64,000 bases of DNA, taken from contig OZ253475.1 in the NCBI GenBank assembly GCA_965261845.1, positions 284,458-348,457 of the forward strand, given 5' to 3'. The notes beneath the pieces were generated by a model. It ran no database searches. It saw nothing but the letters and a program-made list of their open reading frames with translations, and was not told where the DNA came from. The DNA comes from Candidatus Foliamicus sp. (GTDB lineage Bacteria; Pseudomonadota; Gammaproteobacteria; Steroidobacterales; Foliamicaceae). Every line of letters starts with the position of its first letter. Position 1 is the stretch's first letter. Of the stretch, positions 1 to 43,338 are shown piece after piece. The translations under genes were made by a program, and so were the position numbers.

Positions 1-377
1 TGACGGCTCCGGGCACTTTTGCGTCCGGCACCCTTGTCTTCACCGCACCGGCCGATGCCGCCCTTTCCTCGGGTACGACCTACACCGTGGTGGCCACGCC
101 GGCCGGCACCACCTTGCGACTTGACGCGACGACCGCCGATGCCGAGGACACCGGAGGCGCCACCGGGTGGAGCCTGGCGGATGCATACGACTGGAGGAAC
201 AGTTCGAATATGTGGACCACAAACGTTACCAACAAATCGCTAAGGGTCGCCATCAAGGGCCCCACCGTCCAGGTCCCTGCCGCCGTCAGCGATGTGGTCG
301 TGGTGCCGGTACCCCGACCGCCAACTTGCTGCAAGTCTCCGGGTCCGCTCCCGATGACGCGGGGAGGGATCACGTGA
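1..377 (+). pseudogene. 3' remnant of a paralogous giant surface-protein gene (beta-rich N-terminal-type module plus the first residues of an FN3 domain); runs off the left edge
   Basis: Reading frame 3 gives ...GTLVFTAPADAALSSGTTYTVVATPAGTTLRLDATTADAEDTGGATGWSLADAYDWRNSSNMWTT...AVSDVVVVPVPR. This is colinear with GSVVVFTPPSG...GETGWTLADVFDWKQNGTTWMK...AVSDVVVVPVPR of the 377..7066 protein. nt 281-312 are almost identical to nt 1128-1159. Similarity then continues only in another frame (TANLLQVSGSAPDDAG vs SSSLTVSWTAPEDTG). Frame 3 ends at TGA 375-377. Confidence 0.45.
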
Positions 378-3300: not shown

Positions 3301-6300
3301 CGTGCTGACCGCCACCGACGACGACGGCCACACCCTGACCTACACGCTGGAGGGCGCCGACGCGGCCTCCTTCGACATCGCCTCCACCTCGGGACAGATC
3401 CGGACCAAGGCGGGCGTGACCTACAACCACGAAGCCAAGTCCACCTATACCGTCATCGTCAAGGCCGACGACGGCAACGGCGGCACCGACACCGTCACGG
3501 TGACGATCACCGTGACGGACGTGGCCGAGCCCCCGGGGCGCCCGGCGGCGCCCTCGGTGTCGGGGACGTCGGGATCGACCACCAGCCTGGACGTGACCTG
3601 GACCGCGCCGACGAACACCGGTCCGGCCATTACCTCCTACGACCTGCAATATCGCGAGGGCAGCAGCGGGAGCTTCACCGCCGGCCCGCAGAACGTGACC
3701 GGCACCAGCGCCGCCATCGCGAGCCTGATGGCGAGCACGTCGCATCAAGTAGAGGTGCGCGCCACCAACGCTGAGGGCGACGGCGCCTGGTCGTTTCCGG
3801 GGACCGGGCGGACCGGCGCCTCCGTGCCCGGCGCCCCCACGAGCCTTTCGGCAATTGCGAGCGGGTCCACGCAGATCGACCTCTCCTGGACCGCTCCCGG
3901 CAGCGACGGCGGCTCTTCGATCACCGGTTACAAGATCGAGATCTCCTCCGATGGCGGCGCCAACTGGACCGTCCACGTCGCCACTACCGGCAACCCCGCC
4001 ACGACTTACTCCCACATCGGGCTTGCCGCGGGCACGACGCGCCACTACCGCGTCTCCGCCATCAACGCCAACGGCGCCGGCGCCGCCTCCAACACTGACA
4101 ACGCCACCACCACCGGCCAGACGACCGTCCGTTTCGGGGCAGCGGCCTACACGGCCACGGAAGGCGGTGCCGACGCGACGGTGGCGGTGGTGCTGAGCGC
4201 GGCGCCGTCGGCGCCGGTGACGATTCCGCTGACGAAGGCGCATGTGGGGGGCGCCGCGGCGGCGGATTACTCGAGCGTGCCGGCGAACGTGATGTTCCCG
4301 ACCGGGCAGACGCGGCAGACGTTCACGTTGAGGGCAACCGACGACTCGCAGGCCGAAGGCGACGAGCGCGTTCGGTTCGGATTCGGGTCGCTGCCGAGCG
4401 GATACTCGTCGGGCCCTCCCCGCACGGCGACCGTGAGGCTCATCGACGACGATGCGGGCCTGATACTGAGCTTCGGCACGCGTTGGAGCCACACCGTGAA
4501 GGTGCGCGAGAGCGACACGGCGTGGCATCGGTTCACCGTGGACCTGAGGACACATAAGGCCGGGCCGCTGGACGGTAATCCGCAGCAGGCGTTTACGATC
4601 CCGCTGGTGGTGACGCACCGCAACGGCGCGACGCCGGAGGACTACACGGCGCTGCCGGCGAACGTGAAGTTCGAGGTGGGCCAGAGCACGACGTTCTTCC
4701 GCATGCGCGCGATACCGGACGACAGGAGAGAGCCCGGCGAGGGCCTTCGGCTGGACTTCGGCCCGCTGCCGCCGGGGCTGAGCAAGAGCAGCTGGGGGCC
4801 GTACGAAACGATCGAGTTCGTGGACCAGGACCTGCCCAGGGTGACGGCGTTGTTCGGGGCCGAATCCTACACGGCCACGGAGGGCGGCGCCGCCGCCCGG
4901 GTGTCGATCCATCTGAGTGAGCCGGTGGATGTCGAACCGCTCGATGTGCGGCTGTCGGTGCAGCCCGGCGGTGGCGCGACGACGGACGACTATTCCGTTC
5001 CGACGGTCGTGAGGTTCGCGGTGGGCGAGCAGACGAAGACGATCATGGTGACGGCGACGGACGATTCAGACGACGACGACGGCGAGAGCGTGACGCTGTC
5101 CTTCGTCGAGGATCCCAACGACCGGGTGGTCACCGGCGTGGGGTCGGGCAGAACGACGGTGGCGCTGGAGGACAACGACGGGCCTACGGCGGTGGCGGTG
5201 TCGTTCGGGGCGGCGACCTACACGGCCACGGAAGGCGGCGCCGATGCGACGGTGAGCGTCGAACTGGACAAGGCGCCCGGGCGCGCGGTGACGGTGCCGC
5301 TGACGGCGGTGGGCGCCGGCGGCGCGACGACGGCGGACTACTCCGTTCAGGCGAACGTGGCGTTCGGGCCGAACGAGACGTCGAAAACGGTCACCGTGAT
5401 CGCGGTGGACGACTCGGACCCCGACGGCGGCGAGAGCGTGAGGATCGGGTTCGGCGCGCTGCCCGACGGCGTGCTCGCGGGCCGCCCGGCGGCGACGGTG
5501 GTGACGCTGGCCGACGGCACCGAGCAGACGTTCGTGGTGAGCTTCGGCACGAGCCCCACCTTCCACGTCCAGGCGCGCGAGGGCAATGTGGGCAAACGGC
5601 TCGTTGTGTACTTGAGCAACGATCCGTGGGGGAGTGCGGGGAACGCCGAACCGCGGCGCCCGGTGACGATCCCGCTGGTGGTGACGTACCGGGGCGGCGC
5701 GACGGGGGCGGACCACACGCCCATCCCGGCGAGCGTGACGTTTGAGGTGGGCAGCGGCAGGGCGGGCTTCAACGTGCGCGCGTTACCGGACGGGCAGGCC
5801 GAAACCGGCGAGGGCCTGCGGCTGGACTTCGGCCCGCTTCCGCCGGGCGTGACCAAGGGCCGATGGGGGTACGAAACGATCGATTTCGTGGACGAGGCTC
5901 CGGTGCCGGCGGGCCTGTCGGTGTCGGGGTGGATGCTGACGATGGGCTACTCCTTGGCCCTCGATGGGGGCTCAACGCCGTCGGGCAGAGACTTCGTGGT
6001 GCTGGCCAGCGCGCCGGGGGCTGAGTCGGTCGTACCGGTGACGTCGGCATCGGTGGACGGGGACGCGGTCTTGCTGGCGCTGGCGCGCCCGGTGGCGGCG
6101 GACGAGACGGTGACGCTGACCTATCTGCCGGCCGCAATGCACCCGATCCGCAACGCGGCGGGCGTGGCGGTGGCGGCGCTGGCGGACGAGCCGGTACGCA
6201 ACGAGACCGGCGCGCCCGGTCTCCTGTCGGAGGCAGGGCTTGCGGCCGGGATCGCAATGCGGGCTCCGCCGAGAGTGGCGCAAGGGGGCGCCGAGAGGAA

Positions 6301-7066
6301 GCGTCTCGACCTGTCTTGGCGGAACTTGACCGACGTATCCGCGCTGGCAGGGCTGACCGGCGTAAGCGAACTGGATCTCAGCGACAACGCGATCACGGAC
6401 CTGAGCCCGCTGGCGGGGCTTACTGAACTGCGGGCGCTGGACCTTTCCGGCAACCGGATCGAGGACATCTCCATGCTGGCGGGCTTAACGGCGCTGGAGC
6501 GGCTGGGCCTGTCCGGCAACCGGATCAAAGACATCTCCACGCTGGCGGGCTTGAGCGGTCTTCAGGTGCTGGACCTTTCCGGCAACCGGGTCGAGGAACT
6601 CTGGCCGCTGGTGGGGCTGACCGCGCTGGAGCGGCTGAACCTGTCCGACAACCGGGTCGAGGAACTCTCCCCGCTGGAAGGCCTGGGCAGCCTGCAGGTG
6701 CTGCTGCTGGACGGCAACCGGGTCGCCGAAATCCTGGGACTGTTGCCGCTGGCGGGGCTGGAGAACCTGGGGCTGTCGGAGAACCAGATCGAGGATATCG
6801 GCCTGCTGGCGAATCTCGGCCAGCTGCGTCGGCTCGACCTGTCGGGAAATGCCGTCGCGGACATCTCGGCGCTGGGCGATGTGTCGGAACTGCTCTGGCT
6901 GCGGTTGCCCGGCAACCCGGTCTCGGACGTGGCCCCGCTGGGGCAGCTGGAGAACCTGCGCTGGCTATGGCTCGACTCGGCTAGGGTGGCGGGGGTGGAG
7001 GCATTGGCGCCGCACGCCCGGCGCGGGGCGGCACCGCTGTGGATCGAGCGGGTGCCGGCACAGTGA
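377..7066 (+). CDS. Giant secreted multidomain adhesin-like protein (2,229 aa): signal peptide, two copies of a beta-rich module, FN3 x4-5, cadherin domain, several Calx-beta domains, C-terminal leucine-rich repeats
   Basis: ATG at 377 lies inside the longer 167..7066 ORF and is followed by a signal-like segment (RRPRRVALAWAALGLLGLLATVAPEQAVAQ). FN3 signatures: PGAPTSLVATASGNTRINLSWTAPASNGGFAITGYRIEWS...HYRVSAINTQGTG. Cadherin-like: NNPPEFS...ATDDDGHTLTYTLEGADAASFDI...VKADDGNGGTDTVTVTITVTDV. Calx-beta-like: ADYS..PANV.F..GQT..TF...A.DD...EGDE. About ten 22-residue LRR units lie at the C-terminus. No beta-barrel or sortase signal seen. Confidence 0.85.
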   Translation: MEDSKKACQQARAEKLDMINAQSPEPHLTHRPCYESPPATRRPRRVALAWAALGLLGLLATVAPEQAVAQTEITLVGNAGQPNHERHTASFQGTVDHAQQFTTGPNAAGDTLTKIEFLSNDAQSHTFSAQLCEANNTGESTVPAPMNCQTLSTTSSFAQGSVVVFTPPSGMTITLAASTRYVVVLSENNSPSAVVDILSTQANNQNGETGWTLADVFDWKQNGTTWMKQGSGRDALIMDVKGYANSGPPGAVSDVVVVPVPRSSSSLTVSWTAPEDTGKPVPIAYDVRYRGTFGGGWTTVRQNDAANTSLIITGLQPNGYYDVQVLALNADGSGPWSSTREAVISPDPETVLANNPLIPDDLGVGDTFRLLFITGDTNDVYTTLTAATGTNIQDYNNFAIDPTLHIVETGNFLRSWGEAALWQVPLVSMPGHDARLLTDTTWTPTDRGVPIYWLNGARVADDYADFYDGTWADEANPRDGLGQPYPLDGPAPWTGTDHDGTELFDGAASRALGQATVGVGGLGSSAVGAGPLNGRVAFASTEERPLYGLWQVMVVGENLRLVDNTHIPSADRNEGNDDRAAVRAQLFTTGTHPSGYGIEVIRVSAGEDDTFLGPVALYTTDANGKPDTDGLHATLNLDTDTYWILRAPVGTVLKPNTTYALVFQGDSGSYPELRTLGADGENVPAEGWSIADALLYHNGTSWVENPDGRSLTIRMIGPALETDGPALISATVGAAGNAVALAFDEDLALPSDSAEALTFLASLASAFAVSADGSGVAVSGLTASGTDGLTLGLSGVIVQGQAVTLTYTDPTAGDDAIALQDGLGNETPTFTTGIDGVPDVINNSTINVPGAPTSLVATASGNTRINLSWTAPASNGGFAITGYRIEWSADGAAPWADLVANTADSNTTHADTGLAAGTTRHYRVSAINTQGTGASSNVASATTDAVVVNNPPEFSANTAARSVAENTAAGQAVGAVLTATDDDGHTLTYTLEGADAASFDIASTSGQIRTKAGVTYNHEAKSTYTVIVKADDGNGGTDTVTVTITVTDVAEPPGRPAAPSVSGTSGSTTSLDVTWTAPTNTGPAITSYDLQYREGSSGSFTAGPQNVTGTSAAIASLMASTSHQVEVRATNAEGDGAWSFPGTGRTGASVPGAPTSLSAIASGSTQIDLSWTAPGSDGGSSITGYKIEISSDGGANWTVHVATTGNPATTYSHIGLAAGTTRHYRVSAINANGAGAASNTDNATTTGQTTVRFGAAAYTATEGGADATVAVVLSAAPSAPVTIPLTKAHVGGAAAADYSSVPANVMFPTGQTRQTFTLRATDDSQAEGDERVRFGFGSLPSGYSSGPPRTATVRLIDDDAGLILSFGTRWSHTVKVRESDTAWHRFTVDLRTHKAGPLDGNPQQAFTIPLVVTHRNGATPEDYTALPANVKFEVGQSTTFFRMRAIPDDRREPGEGLRLDFGPLPPGLSKSSWGPYETIEFVDQDLPRVTALFGAESYTATEGGAAARVSIHLSEPVDVEPLDVRLSVQPGGGATTDDYSVPTVVRFAVGEQTKTIMVTATDDSDDDDGESVTLSFVEDPNDRVVTGVGSGRTTVALEDNDGPTAVAVSFGAATYTATEGGADATVSVELDKAPGRAVTVPLTAVGAGGATTADYSVQANVAFGPNETSKTVTVIAVDDSDPDGGESVRIGFGALPDGVLAGRPAATVVTLADGTEQTFVVSFGTSPTFHVQAREGNVGKRLVVYLSNDPWGSAGNAEPRRPVTIPLVVTYRGGATGADHTPIPASVTFEVGSGRAGFNVRALPDGQAETGEGLRLDFGPLPPGVTKGRWGYETIDFVDEAPVPAGLSVSGWMLTMGYSLALDGGSTPSGRDFVVLASAPGAESVVPVTSASVDGDAVLLALARPVAADETVTLTYLPAAMHPIRNAAGVAVAALADEPVRNETGAPGLLSEAGLAAGIAMRAPPRVAQGGAERKRLDLSWRNLTDVSALAGLTGVSELDLSDNAITDLSPLAGLTELRALDLSGNRIEDISMLAGLTALERLGLSGNRIKDISTLAGLSGLQVLDLSGNRVEELWPLVGLTALERLNLSDNRVEELSPLEGLGSLQVLLLDGNRVAEILGLLPLAGLENLGLSENQIEDIGLLANLGQLRRLDLSGNAVADISALGDVSELLWLRLPGNPVSDVAPLGQLENLRWLWLDSARVAGVEALAPHARRGAAPLWIERVPAQ
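6301..6990 (+). repeat. About ten tandem 66-bp (22-residue) leucine-rich-repeat units inside the giant protein gene
   Basis: Consecutive units LDLSDNAITDLSPLAGLTELRA / LDLSGNRIEDISMLAGLTALER / LGLSGNRIKDISTLAGLSGLQV / LDLSGNRVEELWPLVGLTALER and so on, read directly from the translation. Confidence 0.85.
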
Positions 7067-7230
7067 GCGCTGGGCCGACGGCGGGTGAGTTGGCGATCGT
7101 AGCTGACGACGAGGGCGAGGATGCCTACATTCACGCCTTTTCATTGCTGGCGGGCGGCGATGGCCAGGGCGACCTGTCTGAGGCCTTCGTCCGCCGGCTG
7201 ATGTGGTGCGCGCTTGCGTACGCGCTCATC

Positions 7231-7515
7231 GGCACTGTCAGAGAAAACCGGCTTGAACCGGGATCCAAGCTCTCGTAGCCTGCGGCCATGAACAATCCCT
7301 TTCGCTATTTCAACAGTTCGCCCGAGGTCATCCGCCTCGCAGTGATGATGTACATCCGCTATCCGTTGTCGTTGCGCCAGGTCGAAGACCTCCTGTTCGA
7401 ACGCGGCATCGACATCTGTCACAAGACGGTGCGTTTCTGGTGGAACCGTTTCGGCCCGATGTTTGCCGCTGAAATGAAGCTTCAATAGGTCCAATCCAGT
7501 TAGATTGACAACGCC
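7231..7515 (+). mobile_element. 285-bp internally deleted (MITE-like) IS6-family element that keeps both ends
   Basis: nt 7231-7475 match the first ~245 bp of the 800-bp IS at 15585 (left IR GGCACTGTCAGAGAAAACCGGCTTGAACCGG, then the first ~63 tnp codons). nt 7476-7515 match its last 40 bp (GAAGCTTCAATAGGT.CAATC.AGTT...TTGACAACGCC). The IR type GGCnnTGTCA resembles the IS26 GGCACTGTTGCAAA. Same orientation as the full copy. Confidence 0.8.
7288..7488 (+). pseudogene. Truncated IS6-family transposase (N-terminal 63 residues, then junction-derived tail)
   Basis: MNNPFRYFNSSPEVIRLAVMMYIRYPLSLRQVEDLLFERGIDICHKTVRFWWNRFGPMFAAE is nearly identical to the N-terminus of the 15642 ORF. The ORF ends where the internal deletion joins the right IS end. 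Confidence 0.8.
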
Positions 7516-7571
7516 CATGCACGTACTACATACGCGCCAACTCGCCTGATGCCGCACAAGCCGGATCAGAC

Positions 7572-9872
7572 TTGCGAGTAGGCTTGGTGGAATTCTTTGC
7601 CCACAGCGCTCCAGAAGCAGAGCCAGACACCCAGCTGCGGCACCCACTGGCTATCCACTTGCAGGATACGGGAAAGCTGGCAGCCCGCTTCCTGAAAGCC
7701 GTGAACGGCAACGAGCTCGGACGAGCCGCAGGGCTGCTCCATGATTTAGGCAAGTACAGCACCGAGTTCCAAGCGCGGCTGGCGGGCAGCCCGCAGCGAG
7801 TGGATCATGCCACGGCCGGCGCGCGGGTCGCGTTGGAGAAATACGGGCCTAGAATCGGAAAGATACTTGCGTTTTGTATCGCCGGACATCATACCGGCCT
7901 GTCCGACGGGCGCGGCGGTGGCGAGGGCAGAACAAGCCTGGAGTATCGGCTTGCGGACGATTACGTGATCCCGGAGATTGATGCGGTGTGGGAGCAGGAG
8001 ATTGCGCTGCCGGGAAGCAGTGATTTTTCCACGTTGACCCTTTGCCCCACGCGATGCGAAGAAGCCTTTGGTGTCGCGTTCCTTACCCGAATGCTGTTCT
8101 CCGCACTGGTGGACGCAGATCGAACCGACACTCGGGCTTGGTTCTCTGGCGAGAAAAGCAAGCTGAAAGCGCCGAGCCGCTCTCCGTCACCTTCAATCCG
8201 AGAGCTTCAGCGGCGCTTGGGCCAACACCTATTGCAACTTGCTGGCAATGCTCAACAAACCAAAATAAATGGCCTGCGCCGGCAGGTACTCCAGCATGTC
8301 CGCAGCCAGGCTGAACAAGCACCAGGCCTGTTCTCACTGACCGTCCCGACGGGAGGAGGCAAGACGCTGGCCTCGCTTGCTTTTGCGCTCGATCATGCCG
8401 TGCGACATGGGTTAAAGCGCGTCATCTATGTGATTCCATACATCAGTATCGTAGATCAGACTGCACGGACATTCCGCAGAGCGTTGAGCGATGAGGACGG
8501 CAGTATTGTCCTGGAACACCACAGCGCGTTCGATGAGGAACGCATCAGCGGACGTGAAGGCCAACAGGCGTTGCGTCTGGCGATGGAAACATGGGATCGG
8601 CCAATTGTCGTCACGACCGCGGTGCAATTTTATGAAAGCTTGTTTTCCGACCGTCCTTCGCGCTGCCGGAAACTTCATAATCTCGCCGAAAGCGTAGTCA
8701 TTCTGGACGAAGCACAGACGCTGCCGCTGGCATTGCTGCAACCCTGCGTGGCCGCGATCCGGGAATTGGCTCGCAATTGGAAAGCGAGCGTGGTTCTTTG
8801 CACCGCTACACAGCCGGCGCTCCATGCGCTGAAGCCGGCTGCTGGTTTTGCCGGGGGACTGGAGGACGTGCGGGAACTGGCGCCGGACCCCCAGGCGCTG
8901 TACACGTCCATTGCGGCGCAGCGCACTCGGATCGTTAAGGAACACGAACCGATTGATGATGTGGAACTGGCTTCGCACTTATTGGGCGTGAGGCAAGTGC
9001 TGTGCATCGTAAACACACGCCGCCACGGGCGCGAGCTATACGAGAGAATCCGGGCGGAGGAGGCAGAGGGCGTGTTTCATCTGACCACGGCTCTGTGCGC
9101 CCGCCACCGGGAACAAAAGCTGCGGCACATTATCGAGCGGTTAAAGGATGACGAGCCGGTTCGGCTCGTAGCCACGTCGCTGATTGAAGCCGGCGTGGAC
9201 ATTGACTTCCCGATGGTGTGGCGCGCGGAGACCGGCTTGGAGTCCATCATCCAGGCTGCCGGACGCTGCAACCGCGAAGGCCGCCGAGAACTCGGTACCG
9301 TTCATGTGTTCAAGTCGGTGGAAGCGGAAGGGCGCCGCCCTCCGCCTGCCATCGCACAGTTCGCTGCTATCGCGCGGTCGGTCATGCGGCAGCATGCCGA
9401 CCCGCTGTCGCTGGAGGCCATTGAAGCGTATTTCAGGGAAACGTACTGGGTAACAGAAGACCGCCTCGATAGAGAGGGAATCCTGGCAGAGATATGGAAG
9501 AGGAAGACATCGTTCGATTTTCCATTCCAGAAGATCGCACGCGACTTCCGGATGATTGACACGGCCATGGAGCCGGTCATTATCCCGTCCTGTCCGGCGG
9601 GCGCGGGACACCGGACATGGAAGATCCCCGAAGGGCTTCTGGACCAGCCGCGTGCAGGGGCGCTAGGCCGGCAGCTACAGCGGTACGTAGTGCAAATCCC
9701 GCCGAAGGCGCGTGCCAACCTGCTCGCGTCCGGAGCGGCCCGGTTGGTGCGCGAGCAGGAGTTCGGATTGCAGTTCGTCGTTCTGCTAGAGAACTCGGAT
9801 CTATACAACGCGGAAACCGGGTTGGATTGGGACGATCCGTTCTATCGGGCTGCGGAATCCCTGGTGGTTTGA
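7572..9872 (+). CDS. cas3: Cas3 HD-nuclease/helicase (type I)
   Basis: HD motifs LLHDLGKYSTEFQ and IAGHHTGL. Helicase Walker A LTVPTGGGKTLASL and DEAQ box VILDEAQTLP. First gene of a canonical I-C operon. The start is uncertain (TTG 7572 or GTG 7586). Confidence 0.9.
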   Translation: MRVGLVEFFAHSAPEAEPDTQLRHPLAIHLQDTGKLAARFLKAVNGNELGRAAGLLHDLGKYSTEFQARLAGSPQRVDHATAGARVALEKYGPRIGKILAFCIAGHHTGLSDGRGGGEGRTSLEYRLADDYVIPEIDAVWEQEIALPGSSDFSTLTLCPTRCEEAFGVAFLTRMLFSALVDADRTDTRAWFSGEKSKLKAPSRSPSPSIRELQRRLGQHLLQLAGNAQQTKINGLRRQVLQHVRSQAEQAPGLFSLTVPTGGGKTLASLAFALDHAVRHGLKRVIYVIPYISIVDQTARTFRRALSDEDGSIVLEHHSAFDEERISGREGQQALRLAMETWDRPIVVTTAVQFYESLFSDRPSRCRKLHNLAESVVILDEAQTLPLALLQPCVAAIRELARNWKASVVLCTATQPALHALKPAAGFAGGLEDVRELAPDPQALYTSIAAQRTRIVKEHEPIDDVELASHLLGVRQVLCIVNTRRHGRELYERIRAEEAEGVFHLTTALCARHREQKLRHIIERLKDDEPVRLVATSLIEAGVDIDFPMVWRAETGLESIIQAAGRCNREGRRELGTVHVFKSVEAEGRRPPPAIAQFAAIARSVMRQHADPLSLEAIEAYFRETYWVTEDRLDREGILAEIWKRKTSFDFPFQKIARDFRMIDTAMEPVIIPSCPAGAGHRTWKIPEGLLDQPRAGALGRQLQRYVVQIPPKARANLLASGAARLVREQEFGLQFVVLLENSDLYNAETGLDWDDPFYRAAESLVV

Positions 9873-9886
9873 GGAAGGAACGAGCA

Positions 9887-10564
9887 ATGGCTTATGGAGT
9901 TCGATTGCATGTATGGGGCGACTACGCTTGCTTCACGCGCCCGGAGATGAAGGTGGAGCGTGTTTCCTACGACGTAATGACTCCATCGGCGGCACGGGGA
10001 ATTCTCGAGGCCATCCACTGGAAGCCGGAAATCCGATGGGTCATTGACCGGATCCATGTGCTGAAACCGATTCGATTCGAGACGATCCGGCGCAATGAGG
10101 TGAGCAGCAAGATTTCAGAGAAAACCGCGCAGGCCGCCATGAAGAAAGGCTCTACGGAGGGATTGCGCCTGTTCGTTGATGACCACAAGGAGCGCCAGCA
10201 GCGCGCAGCACTGGTGCTGCGCGATGTCGCTTATGTCATTGAGGCGCATTTCACGGCCAAGGCGCAGGACGAAGACCTCCAGCAGGTAGCCGCCAAGCAC
10301 ATCTCCATGTTTAACCGCCGTGCCGCCATGGGGCAGTGTTTCCACCAGCCGTACCTGGGGACACGAGAGTTTGCTGCGCATTTCGCTTTAGTCGATGAGT
10401 TGCCGGTTTCGGAGCTGTCCGCGGAAGAGCGTGACCGCGACCTGGGTTGGATGCTGCATGACATTGATTACACGGACGGGAACACTGCCCGGTTGTTTCG
10501 GGCCCGGCTGCGCGACGCGGTAGTGGCGGTTCCGCCGCTGCACAGCTCAGAGACAAAAGCGTGA
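9887..10564 (+). CDS. cas5: Cas5c (Cas5d) pre-crRNA endoribonuclease, type I-C
   Basis: MAYGVRLHVWGDYACFTRPEMKVERVSYDVMTPSAARGILEAIHWKPE is the hallmark Cas5d N-terminus. GAGGAAGGA Shine-Dalgarno sequence upstream of ATG 9887. The longer ORF starting at 9617 is an upstream extension. Confidence 0.9.
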   Translation: MAYGVRLHVWGDYACFTRPEMKVERVSYDVMTPSAARGILEAIHWKPEIRWVIDRIHVLKPIRFETIRRNEVSSKISEKTAQAAMKKGSTEGLRLFVDDHKERQQRAALVLRDVAYVIEAHFTAKAQDEDLQQVAAKHISMFNRRAAMGQCFHQPYLGTREFAAHFALVDELPVSELSAEERDRDLGWMLHDIDYTDGNTARLFRARLRDAVVAVPPLHSSETKA

Positions 10565-12363
10565 TCCTGCAGGCGCTGAACCGCCACTACGAACGCCTGC
10601 ATGCGCAAGGGCGAGCGCCTGCACACGGGTTCTCCGTGGAGAACGTTTCCTACGCCATCGTGCTTTCTGCGGAAGGGCTCCTTGTGGATGTGCTGCCGCT
10701 TTCGGACGCGTCTGAAGGGAAACTGCGGCCCCTGCGGGAGCTGGTCCCGCAGGCCGCGAAGCGGGCCTCGAATGTGTGTCCGAACTTCCTATGGGACAAA
10801 ACGGAATATGCGTTGGGCGTAACGGGCGATACGAAGAAGAACTCCGCTCGCATAGTTCAGTGCCACGCGGCGTTCAAGGACTTTCATCGGCAAATGCTTC
10901 AAGACGCGGAGGATGCCGGTTTACGGGCGCTGCTGCTTTTCCTGGAGCGGTGGGACCCCTGTGATTACCACAATATCCCGCACGCCGAAGACATGCCCAG
11001 CGCCAACGTGGTGTTTCGGCTCGATGGGCAGCAGGCTTTCCTTCATGGCCTCCCGGCGGCGCAGGCGATATGGGAAAACTATATCGGGCAGACCCAGGAG
11101 CTCGCCGGCGCCAGCCCGCGGGCCTGTCTCGTAACCGGACAACCATCTGCCATTGCGAGATTGCATCCTCCAATCAAGGGACTGGGCGACCCCAGCGCGC
11201 AGTCTTCCGGGGTCAACATCGTTTCGTTCAACCGCCGCGCTTTCGAGTCCTTCGGCAAGTCTCAGGGCGAGAACGCTCCGGTCTCCAGGGAGGCCGCTTT
11301 CGGTTACACGACCGCGCTGAATATGCTGATGTCCCGGAATAGCGGTCAAAAATTGCGGATCGGGGATACGACGGTGGTGTTCTGGGCCGAAGCGGAGCAG
11401 AACACAGCAGAGGCGGAAGAAGCGGAACGCCTGATTGCATGGATGATGGATCCGCAAAGGAATCCCGATGACGAAGAGGAGACCGCGAAGGTCGGCGATC
11501 TCCTTCGGAAGATCGCTGAGGGGAGGCCGATCCATGAGGTTGCCCCCGACATCGACCCGACCACACGATTTTATGTCCTGGGCCTGGCACCGAACGCCTC
11601 GCGCTTGTCGGTGCGCTTCTGGCATGCCACGGCCGCGGGAGCGTTGTTCGAGCAGATCGCCGACCATTGGCGTGATCTGCGGTTGTTCCCTCTGCCGCGT
11701 CAATGGCCGGCGGCGGTATGGCAACTGCTGCTGGAAACGGCCGTGAGACGGGAAAGAAAGAACATTGCGCCGCTTTTGGGCGGCGCTTTGATGCGCGCCA
11801 TTCTGACCGGGGCGCCGTATCCTCGGCCCTTGCTATCGGCTGTCATTACGCGTTTCCAAGCGGACGGAAAGGTGACACCACTCCGCGCAGCCCTTGTTAA
11901 AGCCTGTGTTCGGCGTGCAGAACGCCTGAAAAACCCTGACAAAAAGGACACCCTTATGAGCCTTGACCCCTCAAGCCCCCATGTGGCCTATAACCTCGGG
12001 AGGCTGTTCGCCGCGTACGCGTATGTGGAGAAAAGTTATTCCAATCGGAACGCGACCATCCGCGACAAGTACATGGGAACGGCTTCAGCCAACCCACGGC
12101 GGGTGTTCCCGACCTTGATGCGGGGGTATGAGCACAACCGCGCCGCGCTGCTGAAGAAGCCCGGCAACAAAGCCGGCGCCGGCGTGCGGGCCGACAAGGC
12201 AGTAGGAGAAATACTGGGCCACTTGCCAGGAGCAGGCGAGTTGCCGGCCACACTGTCCCTTGAAGATCAGGGTCGGTTTTTCATTGGGTATTACCACCAG
12301 GAGCAAGCTTTTTACACGAAGGCGGTTTCTGAGCCCACGTTGCAATCCGATTTGGAGGAATAA
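10561..12363 (+). CDS. cas8c: Cas8c (Csd1) large subunit, type I-C
   Basis: Starts MILQALNRHYERL (GTG overlapping the cas5 stop). 600 aa. Position between cas5 and cas7 is as in I-C operons. Confidence 0.85.
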   Translation: MILQALNRHYERLHAQGRAPAHGFSVENVSYAIVLSAEGLLVDVLPLSDASEGKLRPLRELVPQAAKRASNVCPNFLWDKTEYALGVTGDTKKNSARIVQCHAAFKDFHRQMLQDAEDAGLRALLLFLERWDPCDYHNIPHAEDMPSANVVFRLDGQQAFLHGLPAAQAIWENYIGQTQELAGASPRACLVTGQPSAIARLHPPIKGLGDPSAQSSGVNIVSFNRRAFESFGKSQGENAPVSREAAFGYTTALNMLMSRNSGQKLRIGDTTVVFWAEAEQNTAEAEEAERLIAWMMDPQRNPDDEEETAKVGDLLRKIAEGRPIHEVAPDIDPTTRFYVLGLAPNASRLSVRFWHATAAGALFEQIADHWRDLRLFPLPRQWPAAVWQLLLETAVRRERKNIAPLLGGALMRAILTGAPYPRPLLSAVITRFQADGKVTPLRAALVKACVRRAERLKNPDKKDTLMSLDPSSPHVAYNLGRLFAAYAYVEKSYSNRNATIRDKYMGTASANPRRVFPTLMRGYEHNRAALLKKPGNKAGAGVRADKAVGEILGHLPGAGELPATLSLEDQGRFFIGYYHQEQAFYTKAVSEPTLQSDLEE

Positions 12364-12366
12364 ACT

Positions 12367-13266
12367 ATGCAAGCAATCAGCCACCGCTACGATTTCGTCT
12401 ATCTGTTCGATGTGGTCAATGGCAATCCCAACGGGGATCCGGATGCCGGTAATTTGCCCAGGCTGGATCCCGAGACGAACCAGGGACTGGTCTCTGATGT
12501 CTGTCTGAAACGCAAGGTAAGGAACTTTGTTGCGCTGACCAAAGAGGGTGCGTCAGGACACGAGATTTTCGTGGCCGAGCGAGCTATTTTGGAACTGCAG
12601 CAGAAGCGCGCATGGGATGCTCTTCTGCCGGAAGCCAAGGATCGCAGCAAACTGCCCAAGGAAGAACAACAGGCGCGTACGCTGAGCCGATGGATGTGCA
12701 AGAACTTTTATGATGTCCGCACGTTCGGTGCTGTCATGTCCACAAAGGGAGCTAACTGCGGACAGGTGCGCGGCCCAATCCAGCTTACCTTTGCGCGCTC
12801 CATTGAGCCCATTTCTCCGCTGGAAATATCCATTACCCGCATGGCGGCTACGACCGAAAAGGATGCGGATGCGAAAGGGGATATCCGCACGATGGGACGC
12901 AAGCACGTTGTTCCCTACGGGCTGTATCGGGCGCACGGCTTTGTTTCCGCTTGTCTGGCCGGTGATGAAACCAAGGGGACGGGGTTTTCTGAAGAAGACT
13001 TGGAATTGTTCTGGACGGCGCTCGAACAAATTTTCGAACATGATCGATCAGCGGCCCGGGGAGAAATGACGGCGCGCAGATTGATTGTCTTTCGGCACGA
13101 CAGCAAATTCGGGAACGCGCCGGCGCACCGGTTGTTCGAGCGGGTTACGGTTCAGCGGAGTCAACCGGAAGACGCAAGCTCGGCGCGTTCCTATTCGGAT
13201 TATGCTGTTCATGTAAATGAAAGCGATTTGCCCACCGGGATCACATTGATCGACAGGATCGCATGA
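12367..13266 (+). CDS. cas7: Cas7c (Csd2) backbone subunit, type I-C
   Basis: [47 protein letters not shown] is the conserved Csd2 N-terminal block. Confidence 0.9.
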
Positions 13267-13310
13267 CCGCTTGATTTCTGGCAGGTGGCATTCTGAAACT
13301 GAAATGCGAC

Positions 13311-13931
13311 ATGATCAGCAATGAGGACTTGATCCCGATTTCAGCTCTTCAGCACATGCTGTACTGCCCCAGGCAATGTGCACTGATTCATATAGAACGC
13401 CAATGGGCGGAAAATCAATTCACGGCCGAAGGACGCATTCTGCATACCCGAGTGGAGGCGGGCAAGCGCGAGACGCAAGGTACCTTGCGCATTGAGCGCA
13501 CCGTGCCGTTGCAATCCCGACGTCTCGGTGTGTTCGGTTTTGCGGATGTCGTAGAGGTTCATGATGGAGGCTGTCCTTTCCCCGTCGAGTACAAGCGAGG
13601 GAGGCAGAAGGCCCATCGGGCCGATGAAGTGCAACTTTGCGCCCAGGCGATCTGCCTGGAGGAAATGACTCAAACGCCTGTTCCCGCTGGGGCGTTGTTT
13701 TACGGCAAAGCCCGGCGGCGCAAGCAGGTGGTTTTCGATCCGTCGTTACGTCAATTGACCGAAAAAGTGGCGCGAGACGTGCGGGCAATGCTGATATTAG
13801 CGGAAACCCCGGCGCCAGAATATGTTCCAAGCAAGTGCAACTCATGTTCTTTGGAGAGCGTGTGCCAGCCCCAAAAGCCCAGAAAGTCTGGGCATGTAGC
13901 ACGCTGGTTAGCACAAGCTATTGAGAGCTGA
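13311..13931 (+). CDS. cas4: Cas4 RecB-like exonuclease with Fe-S cysteines
   Basis: ISALQHMLYCPRQCALIHIE near the N-terminus, C-terminal CNSCSLESVC cysteine cluster, operon position before cas1. Confidence 0.9.
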   Translation: MISNEDLIPISALQHMLYCPRQCALIHIERQWAENQFTAEGRILHTRVEAGKRETQGTLRIERTVPLQSRRLGVFGFADVVEVHDGGCPFPVEYKRGRQKAHRADEVQLCAQAICLEEMTQTPVPAGALFYGKARRRKQVVFDPSLRQLTEKVARDVRAMLILAETPAPEYVPSKCNSCSLESVCQPQKPRKSGHVARWLAQAIES

Positions 13932-13940
13932 TTTGTCGTA

Positions 13941-14981
13941 ATGCGTCGCCATCTGAACACGTTGTATGTCACTACTCCGGACGCTTGGCTTCACAAGGAC
14001 GGCGAAAATGCGGTTGTGAAGGCGGATGGAAAGGAGCTTGGACGTATTCCACTTCACATTCTTGGAGGCATCGTATGCTTTGGCGCTGTTGGGTTTACAC
14101 CATCTCTGATGGGACATTGCGCCAAGCAGGGCGTAGCCGTCTCCTTTTTGAGCCGTAGCGGGCGTTTCTTAGCGCGAGTTGAGGGGCCGGTTTCAGGCAA
14201 CGTGCTTTTGCGTAGAGCCCAGTATCGCGTAGCGGATGACATCAGGGAAAGCACTGCTCTGGCCCGTCATGTAGTGATCGGCAAGTTGCTAAACCAGCGC
14301 GCCGTAGTGCGTAGGGCATTGCGCGACTATGGCGAAAGCATGGATCCGGGAGCGCGCGGCCGCCTGCAAGACTGTGAGGGGGCCTTAAACAGCGCGGCCC
14401 GAGGGGCGCGTGCGGCCCTGGAGATGGACGTTTTACGTGGAGTTGAGGGGCAAGCAGCGCGAGCTTACTATCGCGTGCTCGGTGATCTAACACGCAATGA
14501 TGATCCCGCTTTCGCGTTTGCCCGGCGATCCCGCCGACCTCCGTTGGATCCGGTAAATGCCTTACTGTCCTTTTTCTATACGCTTCTTGTCCACGATTAC
14601 CGTTCCGCGCTGGAAACGGTCGGGTTGGACCCCTCCGTGGGGTACTTACACACAGATCGTCCAGGGCGCCCAAGTGTGGCGCTTGACCTGATGGAAGAAT
14701 TGCGGTCCGTTTTGGCTGATCGCTTGGCGTTATCCTTGATCAACCGCAAACAACTCTCAGCCCGCGATTTCACCACAGCGATAGGTGGGGGTGTACTCAT
14801 GCGAGAGGAGGCGCGAAAGAAGGTTCTGGTGGCGTATCAGGAACGGAAGCAAAACGAATTGACACATCCGTTTCTCAAAGAAAAGACAACGCTGGGACTA
14901 GTGCCATTCCTGCAGGCTACGCTTTTGGCGCGGCGCTTGCGTAACGAACTGGATGGTTATCCGCCATTCTTGTGGAAGTAG
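13941..14981 (+). CDS. cas1: Cas1 integrase, type I-C
   Basis: MRRHLNTLYVTTPDAWLHKDGENAVV start, 346 aa, followed by cas2. Confidence 0.95.
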   Translation: MRRHLNTLYVTTPDAWLHKDGENAVVKADGKELGRIPLHILGGIVCFGAVGFTPSLMGHCAKQGVAVSFLSRSGRFLARVEGPVSGNVLLRRAQYRVADDIRESTALARHVVIGKLLNQRAVVRRALRDYGESMDPGARGRLQDCEGALNSAARGARAALEMDVLRGVEGQAARAYYRVLGDLTRNDDPAFAFARRSRRPPLDPVNALLSFFYTLLVHDYRSALETVGLDPSVGYLHTDRPGRPSVALDLMEELRSVLADRLALSLINRKQLSARDFTTAIGGGVLMREEARKKVLVAYQERKQNELTHPFLKEKTTLGLVPFLQATLLARRLRNELDGYPPFLWK

Positions 14982-14990
14982 GAAGAAGTC

Positions 14991-15281
14991 GTGCTGATGC
15001 TCGTCACTTATGACGTTTCTACACTAGACCAAGCGGGCAGGAAGCGTCTTCGCAGAGTAGCTAAGGCTTGTCGGGACTTTGGCCAGCGCGTGCAGTATTC
15101 GGTATTTGAATGTGAAGTGGACCCAGCGCAATGGGCGAATCTGCGGCAGCGCCTTATCAACGAGATTGATAATGGCACTGACAGCCTCCGTTTCTATAGG
15201 ATAGGTGCTAATTGGCGTAGGCGCATTGAGCATATTGGCGCCAAGGAATCGTACGATCCTAGCGGGCCGCTCGTTTTCTAG
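14991..15281 (+). CDS. cas2: Cas2
   Basis: MLVTYDVSTLDQAGRKRLRRVAKACRDFGQRVQYSVFEC, 96 aa, directly upstream of the leader and array. Confidence 0.9.
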   Translation: MLMLVTYDVSTLDQAGRKRLRRVAKACRDFGQRVQYSVFECEVDPAQWANLRQRLINEIDNGTDSLRFYRIGANWRRRIEHIGAKESYDPSGPLVF

Positions 15282-15463
15282 CAGTGTGCGAACCGAAAGT
15301 GGCTTTATTTTGCGAGTTGATATAAGCGGAATCGCTACCCTATGATTTAACAGAGATTTATTTCTTTAAGTGCTTTCTTCGGTTACGCCTCATAAGGGCG
15401 CTTGACGGGGTTCGCAGAAGCACCGCAAATTTTCGCTCTTTTACAACAGGATAGAGTAGCAAA
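15282..15463 (+). promoter_or_regulatory. CRISPR leader (A+T-richer, non-coding, between cas2 and first repeat)
   Basis: 182 bp without a credible ORF, visibly A+T-richer than the flanks, abutting repeat 1. Confidence 0.5.
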
Positions 15464-15584
15464 GTCGCCCTCCGTGCGGGGGCGTGGATTGAAACTTTAC
15501 TGGCAAAGGTAATGCTTCTAAAGATTTAATGTCGCCCTCCGTGCGGGGGCGTGGATTGAAACACCTCTATTGGATAGTCCTGCT
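15464..15584 (+). CRISPR. Truncated type I-C CRISPR array: 2 repeats, 1 complete 35-bp spacer, 1 spacer cut after 22 nt
   Basis: 32-bp repeat GTCGCCCTCCGTGCGGGGGCGTGGATTGAAAC at 15464-15495 and 15531-15562 (identical). Spacer TTTACTGGCAAAGGTAATGCTTCTAAAGATTTAAT at 15496-15530. Partial spacer ACCTCTATTGGATAGTCCTGCT at 15563-15584 runs straight into the IS6 left IR at 15585. Confidence 0.9.
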
Positions 15585-16384
15585 GGCACTGTCAGAGAAA
15601 ACCGGCTTGAACCGGAATCCAAGCTCTCGTAGCCTGCGGCCATGAACCATCCCTTTCGTAATTTCAACAGTTCGCCCGAGGTCATCCGCCTCGCAGTGAT
15701 GATGTACATCCGCTATCCGTTGTCGTTGCGCCAGGTCGAAGACCTCCTGTTCGAACGCGGCATCGACATCTGTCACGAGACGGTGCGTTTCTGGTGGAAC
15801 CGTTTCGGCCCGATGTTTGCCGCTGAAATAAGGAGGAGGCGCGTCCACGGCCGCAATGGGTCGAACTGGTGCTGGAACCTTGATGAGGGGTTTGTTCGCA
15901 TCAACGGTGAGACACATTACCTATGGCGCGCTGTCGACCACGAAGGCGAGGTGCTTGAGGTTTTTGTCACGAAGCGGCGGGATCGCCGAACCGCACTGAA
16001 GTTCCTGAAGCGCACGATGAAACGGTATGGACGACCATCGTCAATGGTTACCGACCGGCTTCGATCTTATCAAGCCGCGATGAATGTGCTGGGAAATCCT
16101 GGGCGGCAGGAATGCCGGCGCTGGCTCAACAGCGGAGAACTCGCATCAACCGTTTCGAAGGCGGGAAGGGGCGATGGCGCGGTTCAGGGACATCAAGACC
16201 CTGCAAAAAATCGCCGCTGTCCATGCCTCGATCCATAACCACTTCAACCACCAACGCCATCTCACCCGCCGCGACGTTTTCAAACAGCACCGGACCGCTG
16301 CCCTGGCCGAGTGGCGCCAACTCGCAGCCTGAGAGCCCTCGATTGAAGCTTCAATAGGTTCAATCGAGTTGGTTTGACAACGCC
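15585..16384 (+). mobile_element. IS6-family insertion sequence, 800 bp
   Basis: Left IR GGCACTGTCAGAG at 15585. Right end ...TTTGACAACGCC ends at 16384 (reverse complement GGCGTTGTCAAA). Single transposase gene. Size typical for IS6/IS26-type elements. Confidence 0.85.
15642..16332 (+). pseudogene. IS6-family DDE transposase with one frameshift near 16128-16136
   Basis: Frame A (15642..16238) carries MNHPFRNFNSSPEVIRLAVMMY...INGETHYLWRAVDHEGEVLEVFVTKRRD...MVTDRLRSYQAAMNVLGNPGRQEC. The conserved C-terminus AENSHQPFRRREGAMARFRDIKTLQKIAAVHASIHNHFNHQRHL...EWRQLAA is in the frame of ORF 16084..16332. The frames switch around CTCAACAGCGGAGAAC. Confidence 0.8.
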
Positions 16385-16831
16385 CATGGCGGCAGTCGGG
16401 CACGACAAATGGCTTTTTAGTAGAGAACTTCCTCTCGTTCAGAGAGTCATGACATAAGGTGCGCTGGAAGAGCCCGTTGAGCCCCGTTGGCAAAAAAACA
16501 CGGGTCTTGGGGACATTGCAATATGGATCTCGATAACTATAATTATCGCGATCTAGGAGGAGAGAGGACCATGAGGTTGTGCACGTAACTACGAAGCAGG
16601 AAGCCCGCAGTTGATGGCGCTAGCGGGGGGCGCTGGTTGGCGGAGGACTCGGAGTGGTCCAGTCCGATGCCGGCGTGGCCGCGTCGGAAGGTCGCCGGCA
16701 GCGGGGCTGTCTGCCCGTCCTCAAGGGCGAATCCCGGACCCACTTGATTTCCAGCGGGCCTGGGTTGCTGCGGAAATCGCGGGCGAGCTGCCGTACGACT
16801 TCGTCGATTCGGGAGAGGTGGGGCGACCACA

Positions 16832-17600
16832 GTGAAATTCGCCGCCGGCGAGACGAGCGTGATGCTGACGGCGGGCCATGGCGACATCGCGGACATCGAC
16901 GGGTTGCCGGCAGCATTCCCCGACGACTACACCTTCCAGTGGGTTCGGGTGGATGCGGACGGCCCGTCGAATCCCGCCGACATCAACGACGCAACCTCGG
17001 GCGTCTACACCCGCGCCGACGGTGGTCTCCATTCTGTGCCAGTCTCCTGCGTTCTCGCCGACCCACGCCGACAGCCTGACCTGGCGGGTGGGGTTCAGCG
17101 AGGCCGTTCAGAATGTCGACGCGGCGGACTTCGCAATGTCCGGCACGACGGCCGCGCCGACCGTTGCCGCGGTGTCGGGGCTTCCGCGCAATACGACGTG
17201 ACGGTTTCCGGCGGCAATCTGGGGTCCCTCAACGCCACGGTCACGCTTTCCTTTGCCTCGGGCTGCGGGTCCGGCCGGAAACGCACTCGCGAACACCACG
17301 CCGGCGGGGACGACGTACACGCCGTCGGGTTCGCTGCAGGTGGGCGCGTCGATTGCGGCGATGAGCCCTGCGGGAGGCAGCGGCATCGACAGCTACAGCG
17401 CCACGGGGCTGCCGTCGAGGTTGGGCATCAACGCCGCGACCGGGGTGATCGGCGGCACGCCGGGCACGGCCAGCGACGGTACGACGGTGACCGCGTCCGA
17501 CAGTGCGGACAACACCGCCATGGTGTCGATCGCGTTCCCGGCGGTGGCCAGGGGCGCTCAGACGCTGAGCGGGTTCGCCTGCAGCGCGGCCTTGAGGACG
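16832..17600 (+). pseudogene. Multiply frameshifted remnant of an adhesin/autotransporter paralogue
   Basis: Pieces lie in three frames: VKFAAGETSVMLT...YTFQWVRVDADGPSNPADINDATSGVYT; THADSLTWRVGFSEAVQNVDAADFAMSGTTAAPTVAAVSGLP; VTVSGGNLGSLNATVTLSFASG; TPAGTTYTPSGSLQVGASIAAMSPAGGSGIDSYSATGLPSRLGINAATGVIGGTPGTASDGTTVTASDSADNTAMVSIAFPAVARGAQTLSGF. The last piece is colinear with the repeat module of the 18779 ORF. Similarity ends near 17590. Confidence 0.5.
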
Positions 17601-17937
17601 ATTTGCGCCTGGGAACGACCAACGACCTGGCCCTGCCCGTGCTGGCTGGGAGCAACCCGGCCGGCTACACCCGAGGCCCCGCCGCGGCGGGCATCCATCA
17701 AGGACAAGGGCAAGGGCGAGAAGACGCGAGAGCGATGAGCGGCTCCCAAAGGCCGCAGAGCCTACGAAGGATGAACCGCAACGGCAGTGACAGACAAGAG
17801 AACGAACGAGACCAATGCAGTCATGAGGCGATTCAGCGTTGAGCACGAATTGCAACGAGAGTGCGCCCTGCGCGGATTTGCGGAGCCGAACGGCGGACGC
17901 GGAATGCCGGGAATCAGGGCAGCGGCCGGGGCAGGTC

Positions 17938-18861
17938 ATGTCCCGGCTGACGCTCTCCTGCGAGGAACGTCCGTGTGAACCGTCCCGCCGCGCACAGGTA
18001 GCCCGGCAACATTCGGGCTGGCTGTGGTCCGCGCTGGCCGGTCTTATGGTACTGACCGGCCTCGCCGCACCCGCTGCTGCACAGACGGTGCAGACGTTGG
18101 TTTCGAATACCAGTGAAAGCCGACCCCTCAGTGGTGCAAGCTCAATTTTAGCGGCGTCTATAAGCACGGGCGACCACCGTAATGGATACACGATTTCGCA
18201 GCTTGAACTTCACATGTTTGAGGTCGCGTCACGTAGCACGACCGTCAAGCTCTATTCGAACAGCAGCAGCGGCGAACCGCAGAATCTGCTGGCGACGTTC
18301 ACGAACACGGTCAGTTTGGCGAGCCGGGCGCTCAATACGTATACCGCGCCACCCAACACGACGCTCAGTAAAAACACGACCTACTGGATAGTGGTAAACG
18401 AGGATATTAGCGACAGCAGCCAGCGTGTTAGTTATTCCACTACCAGGAGCAAAAACGATACAAGCAGCTACGGATGGAGTATCGGCAACAAAAGGTTAAT
18501 TAAATCCACGCAAACTGCCGTCTGGAGAACTAGTACTTTTAGCGTTCTCTCCCTGGCCGTGAGAGGGAACTTAACCAGCGGCTCCTCCCCGCTCACGGTG
18601 ACGATCAGCGATGTTCCGGACACCAGCAGCGAGCCCTTCACGGCGACCTTCACCTTCCTGGAGACTGTCACGGGCTTCACCGTCGACGATATCACGCTCA
18701 CCAATGCGACGGCCTCGAGCTTCATGACAACAACGACCCCGGGTGTCTACACGGCGCTGATCACGCCCACGGCGGACGGTGCAGGCCTCGTCGACCTACA
18801 CCGCGTCGAACACTGGCCCCACCACGCTGGTATTGAACCTCGCCGCCGTTGCCACGGATAA
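17938..18861 (+). CDS. N-terminal segment (signal peptide + beta-rich module + Ig-like domain) of the giant autotransporter, separated from the rest by a frameshift
   Basis: ATG 17938 gives MSRLTLS...WLWSALAGLMVLTGLAAPAAAQTVQT (signal-like). The module ...NTTYWIVVNEDISDSS...SYGWSIGNKR... resembles those at 1-377 and in the 377 gene. The frame is closed by TAA at 18859-18861, while the next frame opens after TGA 18758-18760. Confidence 0.7.
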   Translation: MSRLTLSCEERPCEPSRRAQVARQHSGWLWSALAGLMVLTGLAAPAAAQTVQTLVSNTSESRPLSGASSILAASISTGDHRNGYTISQLELHMFEVASRSTTVKLYSNSSSGEPQNLLATFTNTVSLASRALNTYTAPPNTTLSKNTTYWIVVNEDISDSSQRVSYSTTRSKNDTSSYGWSIGNKRLIKSTQTAVWRTSTFSVLSLAVRGNLTSGSSPLTVTISDVPDTSSEPFTATFTFLETVTGFTVDDITLTNATASSFMTTTTPGVYTALITPTADGAGLVDLHRVEHWPHHAGIEPRRRCHG

Positions 18862-29532: not shown

Positions 29533-29574
29533 AGGCGAAAGCCGCCGCCGATCGGCGCTGACCGCGCCCGTTCT

Positions 29575-43317: not shown

Positions 43318-43338
43318 GTAACGCCTGCAGTTCCTTTG

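Follow-up and report, generated by a model that had tools for sequence, protein, structure and literature searches.

A complete type I-C CRISPR-Cas module bounded by two defective, directly oriented IS6-family copies in Candidatus Foliamicus sp.

Can an insertion sequence (IS) bring a complete adaptive-immunity system to a new chromosomal site, or does it only trim the system where it stands? The movement of whole CRISPR-Cas loci (clusters of regularly interspaced short palindromic repeats and their associated genes) from site to site and from genome to genome is known mostly through phylogenetic inference. Both mobile elements that carry CRISPR-Cas and CRISPR loci hit by an IS have already been documented (PMC4669384, PMC6360697, PMC10359306). 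Here, the question is raised by a 64,000-nt stretch of Candidatus Foliamicus sp. (assembly GCA_965261845.1, contig OZ253475.1, positions 284,458 to 348,457, forward strand; hereafter the window, with its first letter as position 1), in which a type I-C operon is enclosed between two IS6-family copies of the same orientation (the locus studied, 7231–16384). The comparison described below indicates that IS6 activity defines the borders of the module and that it plausibly moved the module. The reading leaned towards, without much assurance, is that of a fossil, pseudo-compound-transposon-like IS6-bounded CRISPR-Cas cassette.

Relatives of the locus were recovered by exact-protein look-ups in independent metagenome assemblies (accession series ERZ6103982–ERZ6104481, ERZ234951xx and ERZ25071132); the comparison loci carry L numbers. 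The two IS copies, together with the gene cut by the left one, are laid out in the window as follows.

7063–7230, + strand: 5′ fragment of a small open reading frame (ORF; 56 codons, by translation), a putative gene with a GTG start overlapping the stop codon of the adhesin gene
7231–7515, + strand: left IS6-family copy, 285 bp, an internal-deletion form resembling a miniature inverted-repeat transposable element (MITE), delimited by alignment to the right copy
7231–7244: left terminal inverted repeat (IRL) of the left copy
7502–7515: right terminal inverted repeat (IRR) of the left copy
7288–7488, + strand: residual N-terminal transposase ORF in the left remnant, 66 codons
15585–16384, + strand: right IS6-family copy, 800 bp, delimited by alignment, NCBIfam and comparison with intact copies
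15642–16332, + strand: transposase pseudogene of the right copy, with a 5-bp deletion between 16131 and 16132

Alignment reproduces what the initial annotation had read from the letters alone, i.e., an internally deleted copy that keeps both ends and a longer copy in the same orientation, differing at scattered positions (98% identity over the first 245 bp and 36/40 over the last 40 bp). At the junction 7475/7476 of the left copy (GCTGAAAT joined to GAAGCTTC), IS positions 246–765 (520 bp) are gone, the catalytic domain included; both 14-bp terminal repeats are kept, the right one with a substitution. Two intact copies from one related genome (L004, L005) measure 805 bp, and the ends of the element can be fixed at GGCACTG...ACGCC because the flanks of these copies diverge immediately outside those bases. 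Relative to them, the right copy lacks 5 bp (ATAGA), shifting the frame just upstream of the AENSHQ motif, before the catalytic E, as does the right copy of L008, which carries the same deletion; the annotated frameshift in the resident transposase is thereby confirmed. The repaired transposase is a 231-aa DDE enzyme with hundreds of 231-aa homologues, the closest being 93–96% identical, and the 198-aa N-terminal ORF of the right copy alone scores 153.6 bits with the NCBIfam IS6 model NF033587 (cut-off 125). The element length and transposase size (805 bp, 231 aa) lie within the family range (700–890 bp, 213–254 aa), and the terminal repeats are of the expected type (about 14 bp, beginning with GG): GGCACTGTCAGAGA versus GGCGTTGTCAAACC, 9/14 identical, with near-perfect repeats in related IS6 copies, e.g., GGCATTGTCAGAGT. 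Hence, both window copies belong to one IS6-family species, are directly oriented, as in a pseudo-compound transposon, and are both defective; the alignment rejects their assignment to two different IS species, which would have undone the annotated architecture.

Two small observations concern these copies. CATG follows both of them (7516–7519 and 16385–16388), probably by chance (1 in 256); it was rejected as a part of the IS, since intact copies elsewhere have other bases next. The 66-codon ORF of the remnant is intact in every remnant-bearing strain and encodes transposase residues 1–63, normally the DNA-binding region; it could be either a by-product or a truncated regulator.

The enclosed module comprises the following features.

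7587–9872, + strand: cas3 (HD nuclease and helicase), GTG start, 761 aa (TIGR01587, TIGR01596)
9887–10564, + strand: cas5c, 225 aa (TIGR01876, 181 bits; start set after the L006 gene calls)
10561–12363, + strand: cas8c/csd1, 600 aa (TIGR01863, 507 bits)
12367–13266, + strand: cas7/csd2 (TIGR02589, 381 bits)
13311–13931, + strand: cas4 (TIGR00372)
13941–14981, + strand: cas1c (TIGR03640, 491 bits)
14991–15281, + strand: cas2 (TIGR01573)
15282–15463, + strand: CRISPR leader, 182 bp, with a promoter-like site at 15317–15346
15464–15584, + strand: array stub, i.e., repeat 15464–15495, spacer 15496–15530 (35 nt), repeat 15531–15562 and cut spacer 15563–15584 (22 nt)

All seven cas genes exceed the NCBIfam cut-offs, five of them with type I-C-specific models, and the gene set and order (cas3-cas5c-cas8c-cas7-cas4-cas1-cas2, no cas6) are those of type I-C; no other family-matching ORFs lie between the IS copies, in agreement with the annotated content of operon, leader and array stub only. 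The 761-aa Cas3 product is likewise called in relatives, the leader is conserved in L001, L006, L008–L011, L017 and L020, and the 32-nt repeat occurs twice in identical form (15464, 15531) versus zero occurrences expected by chance. The ratio of nonsynonymous to synonymous substitution rates (dN/dS) over the operon is 0.22 (window versus L017), and the cas genes are, judging by sequence comparison, under purifying selection. Neither the type I-C system nor the IS6 element stands out within its family. Less ordinary are the edges: the right end of the left IS lies 71 bp upstream of cas3, and the right IS starts inside a spacer, directly after its first 22 nt, the older part of the array being gone. 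Neither the complete spacer (15496–15530) nor the cut one has an exact match or protospacer in IMG/VR.

The significance of these edges is revealed by an IS6-free twin, L020 (ERZ28669063 ctg62891), harboring the same operon at 97.95% identity over window 7515–15565, with the differences spread along the length, 57 perfect repeats plus one degenerate terminal repeat, and no IS6 on either side. The homology begins at 7516, directly behind the last base of the left IS, where CATGCACG (7516–7523) aligns with CTTGCACG of L020, and on the right it spans the leader and reaches the first repeats; past the right IS, the window is without a counterpart in L020. Upstream of cas3, L020 continues for at least 243 bp more, and these 243 bp are homologous to the upstream region of another type I-C locus, L014; the truncated small ORF and adhesin gene left of the IS in the window are unrelated to the L020 upstream flank. 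With homology starting at 7516 and ending in the array, this alignment puts the limits of the conserved module exactly at the two inner IS ends, and the outer flank on either side appears foreign to it. Neither outer flank would then represent ancestral cas-flanking DNA, as predicted by IS6-mediated capture or relocation. The homologous type I-C loci L014, L015 and L016 are IS6-free as well and reside in another chromosomal context (AbiEi/AbiEii ... PhyH). In two of these, a shortened cas5 is separated from cas8c by an IS256-type (Transposase_mut) gene (L015:12826–14085 and L016:11488–12747), and cas3 is shortened to 616 aa, an apparent case of an IS-inactivated sister locus.

Since IS elements are multicopy and metagenome assemblies often misjoin at them, a repeat-induced chimera could, in principle, have misplaced the IS copies in the source assembly. 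However, the segment from the remnant to cas3 is spanned by seven contigs, six from short-read assemblies (L006, L009–L013) and one of 430 kb from a long-read assembly (L008), all 99.5–99.8% identical to the window, and 7/7 have the same remnant deletion junction and the same remnant–cas3 junction. The junction between the cut spacer and the IS is identical in every contig reaching the array, and L008 is collinear with window 1–17251. Overall, the spacer–IS junction recurs on seven independent metagenome contigs and the remnant–cas3 junction on eight. With a unique deletion junction and a cut spacer recurring in short- and long-read assemblies of several studies, the artefact explanation is effectively refuted and its residual probability is negligible. 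The IS-bounded structure is thus real and is inherited at one chromosomal site in a natural population. Between L008 and the window, the cas interior diverges by 0.25% and the flanks by about 2%; a recent sweep of the cassette, considered on account of this low divergence, was set aside, since the flanks are non-coding or hypervariable adhesin DNA. In L011:3141–4943, cas8c is split into 503-aa and 96-aa products by a true frameshift or nonsense mutation or by an assembly error.

The truncated array keeps a record of what happened after the IS event. All arrays (L006, L008–L011, L017 and the window) terminate in an identical 22-nt cut spacer, the number of repeats being one in L006 and L011, two in the window, three in L009, five in L008, six in L010 and seven in L017. 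The spacer adjoining the cut one is common to the window, L008, L009 and L010; those nearer to the leader are each unique to their own strain. Such a layout, with the trailer end common to the strains and a differing leader end, is that of polarised gain in a type I-C array and points to acquisition after the IS event by a truncated locus that still adapts. The array was cut by the IS event to the leader and one repeat and was then independently regrown in different strains.

It remains to be asked whether the IS6 copies delivered the module or cut it down in place. As to delivery, there is about an even chance, or a little better, that the module was brought to, or stranded at, the adhesin locus by IS6-type chemistry. 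In the first of three stages, a resident IS copy in the small ORF would have made an adjacent deletion; then, a translocatable unit or cointegrate in which the type I-C segment had been cut beforehand, at −71 of cas3 and within the spacer, would have been incorporated beside the resident copy; eventually, both IS copies would have decayed. Candidate routes include a cointegrate, a translocatable unit inserted beside the resident IS after the adjacent deletion, and an equivalent recombination between IS copies; the translocatable-unit route with a prior adjacent deletion would explain both the truncated small ORF and the absence of a target duplication. This three-stage account calls for fewer ad hoc steps than any other. 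As a rule, the two IS copies of an IS6 pseudo-compound transposon are directly oriented (PMC7986276).

The competing explanation is that the type I-C locus has occupied this site all along and never moved as a unit: two independent IS6 insertions, oriented alike by coincidence, would each have been accompanied by an adjacent deletion through intramolecular replicative transposition, one reaching to 71 bp upstream of cas3 and the other into the array. We regard this trimming in situ as a substantial possibility, if one to be bet against. It is in keeping with the confinement of the IS-bounded unit to one site and with the absence, stated in the initial annotation and confirmed here, of any 8-bp target duplication at the left copy, the right copy or the composite (outer flanks CGCTCATC versus CATGGCGG). 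In the IS6 family, the loss of target repeats follows intramolecular events, and adjacent deletions without duplications are standard (PMC7986276). Duplications are likewise absent at the intact L004 and L005 copies and at 33 of the 34 related copies with both ends and flanks on the JGI metagenome contigs L021–L100, the only perfect 8-bp one being found in L053; this scarcity could reflect either chimeric assembly across a multicopy repeat or a true duplication-less behaviour. Moreover, a more distant, 2.96-Mb relative, L018, carries a different CRISPR type after its orthologous adhesin, so a CRISPR locus could be ancestral to the site. Still, trimming in situ requires two insertions and two deletions that spared the operon, the leader and one repeat; the IS6-free contexts recovered for the operon lineage (L020, L014–L016) all have flanks dissimilar to those of the window; and a composition unlike that of core genes points to a foreign origin.

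Several findings weigh against delivery by IS6-type chemistry. Neither window copy is a transposition-competent flanking IS, and, to judge from their lesions, neither is able to transpose alone. The missing duplications belong here too. No second site and no plasmid was seen to carry the IS-bounded unit, every assembly extending past the IS copies showing the same site; the search for the same IS–cas junctions in a second context, plasmids included, came back empty, the operon occurring elsewhere only without IS6 (L020). In the plasmid collection, IS copies reach at most 70% DNA identity and type I-C operons at most about 69%, and no donor was identified. Direct orientation has a 50% prior under two independent insertions. 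L020 itself has an IS21 IstA fragment and an IS3 orfA at its flanks, so that the direction of events cannot be read from it. Lastly, the −10 element of the hybrid cas3 promoter considered below looks weak. The designation "pseudo-compound-transposon-like, fossil" is used because three properties of a genuine transposon of this kind are missing: an IS able to transpose, a duplication around the unit and occurrence in a second context. Thus, the proposal in the initial annotation that the module was acquired as an IS6-bounded unit stands in part: it is backed by the shared IS species, direct orientation, exact borders relative to L020, non-ancestral flanks and another CRISPR type at the L018 site, but only one site, no composite duplication, no working transposase and no second IS–cas context were found for it.

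The scan of genome contigs with Cas8c returned only two relatives (54–55% identity), and that of JGI metagenomes with Cas3 returned nothing. Hints as to taxonomy pointed to Alphaproteobacteria. Among the 80 JGI loci with related IS6 copies examined, none (0/80) had a CRISPR array adjacent to the IS, so that there is no recurrent IS6-CRISPR association.

Could the unit still be moving? In L006 and L011, the DNA after the cut spacer is an IS left end whose alleles (G32, C57, C75) are private to the left remnant and match no right copy or intact copy; this is the junction expected of a circle or tandem copy composed of the 285-bp remnant and the cas segment (8.3 kb), which might be moved in trans by intact IS copies. 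The remnant keeps both terminal repeats, and intact 805-bp copies with 94–96% identical transposases are present in related genomes. On the other hand, the right terminal repeat of the remnant bears its substitution, the L006 and L011 contigs end 60–83 bp short of closing, where k-mers become shared with other IS copies, L006 is covered only 3.6x, and no second insertion site was found. Gene conversion of a chromosomal right copy by the left copy accounts equally well for the same junction, and the right-copy variation between strains suggests that such conversion is frequent. A still-mobile translocatable unit is, therefore, considered improbable. The left-type alleles in L006 and L011 were also considered as an assembler majority consensus; this was rejected, since they are neither the majority alleles nor the intact ones and since right-type alleles were assembled in L009 and L010.

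Turning from the cassette to the site, L017, from the same sample as L008, has lost both IS copies. On its left, adhesin 1 and the remnant were removed by a microhomology-mediated deletion whose endpoints are the adhesin signal-peptide region (window position ~525) and 7541; on its right, 15 bp of the IS left end (an IRL scar) follow the cut spacer and then unrelated DNA begins. The scar marks loss, not prior absence, so L017 is not, strictly, the same locus at the same site without IS, which would have spoken for later insertions. Its cas8c-cas7 block (L017:10064–12763 versus window 10561–13266) has been replaced: dS is 0.24–0.28 there versus ≤0.004 in cas3 and cas5, which indicates recombination within effector genes between close strains. 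L017 was, therefore, not retained as a uniformly 3.8%-diverged relative; it is a close one with a replaced block. In L018 (region 12548–21743), the orthologous leucine-rich-repeat (LRR) adhesin shows 80% DNA identity up to window 7087; after it come an IS66 transposase and a CRISPR-Cas system of type I-G (GSU0053/GSU0054). The search for an empty site via the adhesin LRR domain yielded L018 and L019 (the latter in a context resembling an integrative and conjugative element, ICE) and no empty site. The rearrangements in L017, L018 and L015/L016 suggest that the region is a hot spot of CRISPR-module and IS turnover.

The small ORF is cut by the left IS, and its 3′ part is found nowhere in the window; in L008 and L009 it is called as a 71-aa product reading into the IS, and no homologue was detected in any other fetched locus. 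The cas interior is indeed less G+C-rich than the adhesin genes, as annotated initially (58% versus 69% and 66%), but the G+C content at third codon positions (GC3) changes the meaning of this contrast: adhesin 1 has 0.88 versus 0.78–0.79 in core genes (valyl-tRNA synthetase, ValRS; indolepyruvate oxidoreductase), and the cas genes (0.58–0.70) resemble the neighbouring defence island (0.62–0.71). Hence, the compositional outliers are the adhesin genes. The IS end might also serve expression of the operon, as the remnant keeps the transposase promoter region, oriented towards cas3, and contributes to one candidate element.

7505–7532, + strand: possible hybrid cas3 promoter, with −35 TTGACA (7505–7510) in the IS right end, a 16-nt spacer and −10-like TACATA (7527–7532) in resident DNA

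Plausibly, cas3 is transcribed from the transposase promoter of the remnant and/or from this hybrid promoter. The TACATA aligns with TATAAG of the IS-free L014; the consensus promoter scan did not report TTGACA-16-TACATA, which has no T at position 6 of the −10. Hybrid promoters are common in the IS6 family, in which MITEs of 227 and 336 bp also exist and are listed in ISfinder (PMC7986276).

The surroundings of the module are those of a variable island, with an integrase upstream in L008 and L017, IS3- and IS4-type elements, other defence systems and a composition unlike that of core genes. Adhesin 2 (window 18783–23955) contains 4–5 tandem units of ~830 bp and three of ~677 bp, and L008 differs from it by a whole-unit deletion. 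Downstream of it, a LuxR-type gene (28186–29579) has an 88.8% identical copy upstream of the integrase at L017:1873–3282; the island may, therefore, be arranged differently in the two strains. An Rfam ALIL pseudoknot on the minus strand (29883–30002; 54.4 bits, above the gathering score) is an IS3-family frameshift signal and thus indicates another IS ~2 kb beyond adhesin 2. A 577-aa DDE_Tnp_1 transposase (36635–38368, minus strand) is encoded identically on 7 contigs and has a 578-aa DDE_Tnp_1 counterpart in L004, this element being a multicopy IS in the lineage. Short intergenic inverted-repeat elements with the GC-rich motif GGGAACGAGGGCGTCCCGCCCTCG occur at 35196–35317, 36517–36559, 56616–56718 and 57635–57672; their pairs are 84–93% complementary, resembling repetitive extragenic palindromes (REP) or MITEs. 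The defence island proper (38717–52220, minus strand) encodes a UvrD-like helicase, a subtilase S8 and an AAA ATPase, a DUF4276 protein with an AAA_21 ATPase, and a type III-like restriction-modification pair (N6_N4_Mtase, ResIII); beyond it lie the core genes for indolepyruvate oxidoreductase, ValRS and tRNA-Glu.

Among known systems, the structure is most readily set beside the IS26/IS6 pseudo-compound transposons (Tn4352, Tn6023, Tn610) and translocatable units, which likewise have two direct copies of the same IS around a passenger; the missing duplications and adjacent deletions fit the cointegrate and intramolecular routes of the family (PMC7986276). Unlike these transposons, it carries a complete adaptive-immunity operon in place of resistance genes, one of its copies is a 285-bp derivative and the other is frameshifted, no 8-bp repeat flanks it, and its movement is not documented. 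The left copy resembles the IS6-family MITEs (PMC7986276) in its kept ends, lost catalytic region and size range, but it is known at one locus only, as a local deletion product, and retains the first 63 transposase codons. As in the reported IS insertions disabling CRISPR-Cas (PMC10359306), an IS lies inside the CRISPR-Cas locus (here, in a spacer) and stored immunity was removed; unlike those cases, the operon is intact, no cas gene was hit and adaptation resumed. Similarly to type I-C systems on Pseudomonas aeruginosa ICEs (PMC4669384) and to CRISPR-Cas on Vibrio islands (PMC6360697), the module resides in a variable island, its immediate borders being IS6 ends, not ICE or island att sites. 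With Tn7-like CRISPR-associated transposons, it shares the physical linkage of CRISPR-Cas genes and transposon ends; in contrast to them, a functional link appears to be absent, since cas3 and the adaptation genes are present and an ordinary immunity system, not targeting machinery, would be the cargo.

What the locus offers is, first, a view of the IS6 trimming of a CRISPR module at single-base resolution: the cut points are visible, a single IS6 species marks both borders, and the IS6-free twin shows the part removed. Second, it represents a natural reset and regrowth of an array, i.e., a natural experiment in which the immune memory was erased to one repeat and rebuilt with different spacers in each strain. 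A leader and a single repeat are, therefore, enough for adaptation in the wild, and an IS hit within a CRISPR locus can reset the system instead of killing it. If relocation by IS6 chemistry is true, defence systems would join the cargo of IS26-type pseudo-compound transposons, so far mainly antibiotic resistance genes. If the unit were still mobile, a complete CRISPR-Cas system would be circulating in natural populations as the cargo of an IS26-type unit with a 285-bp non-autonomous remnant as its only IS.

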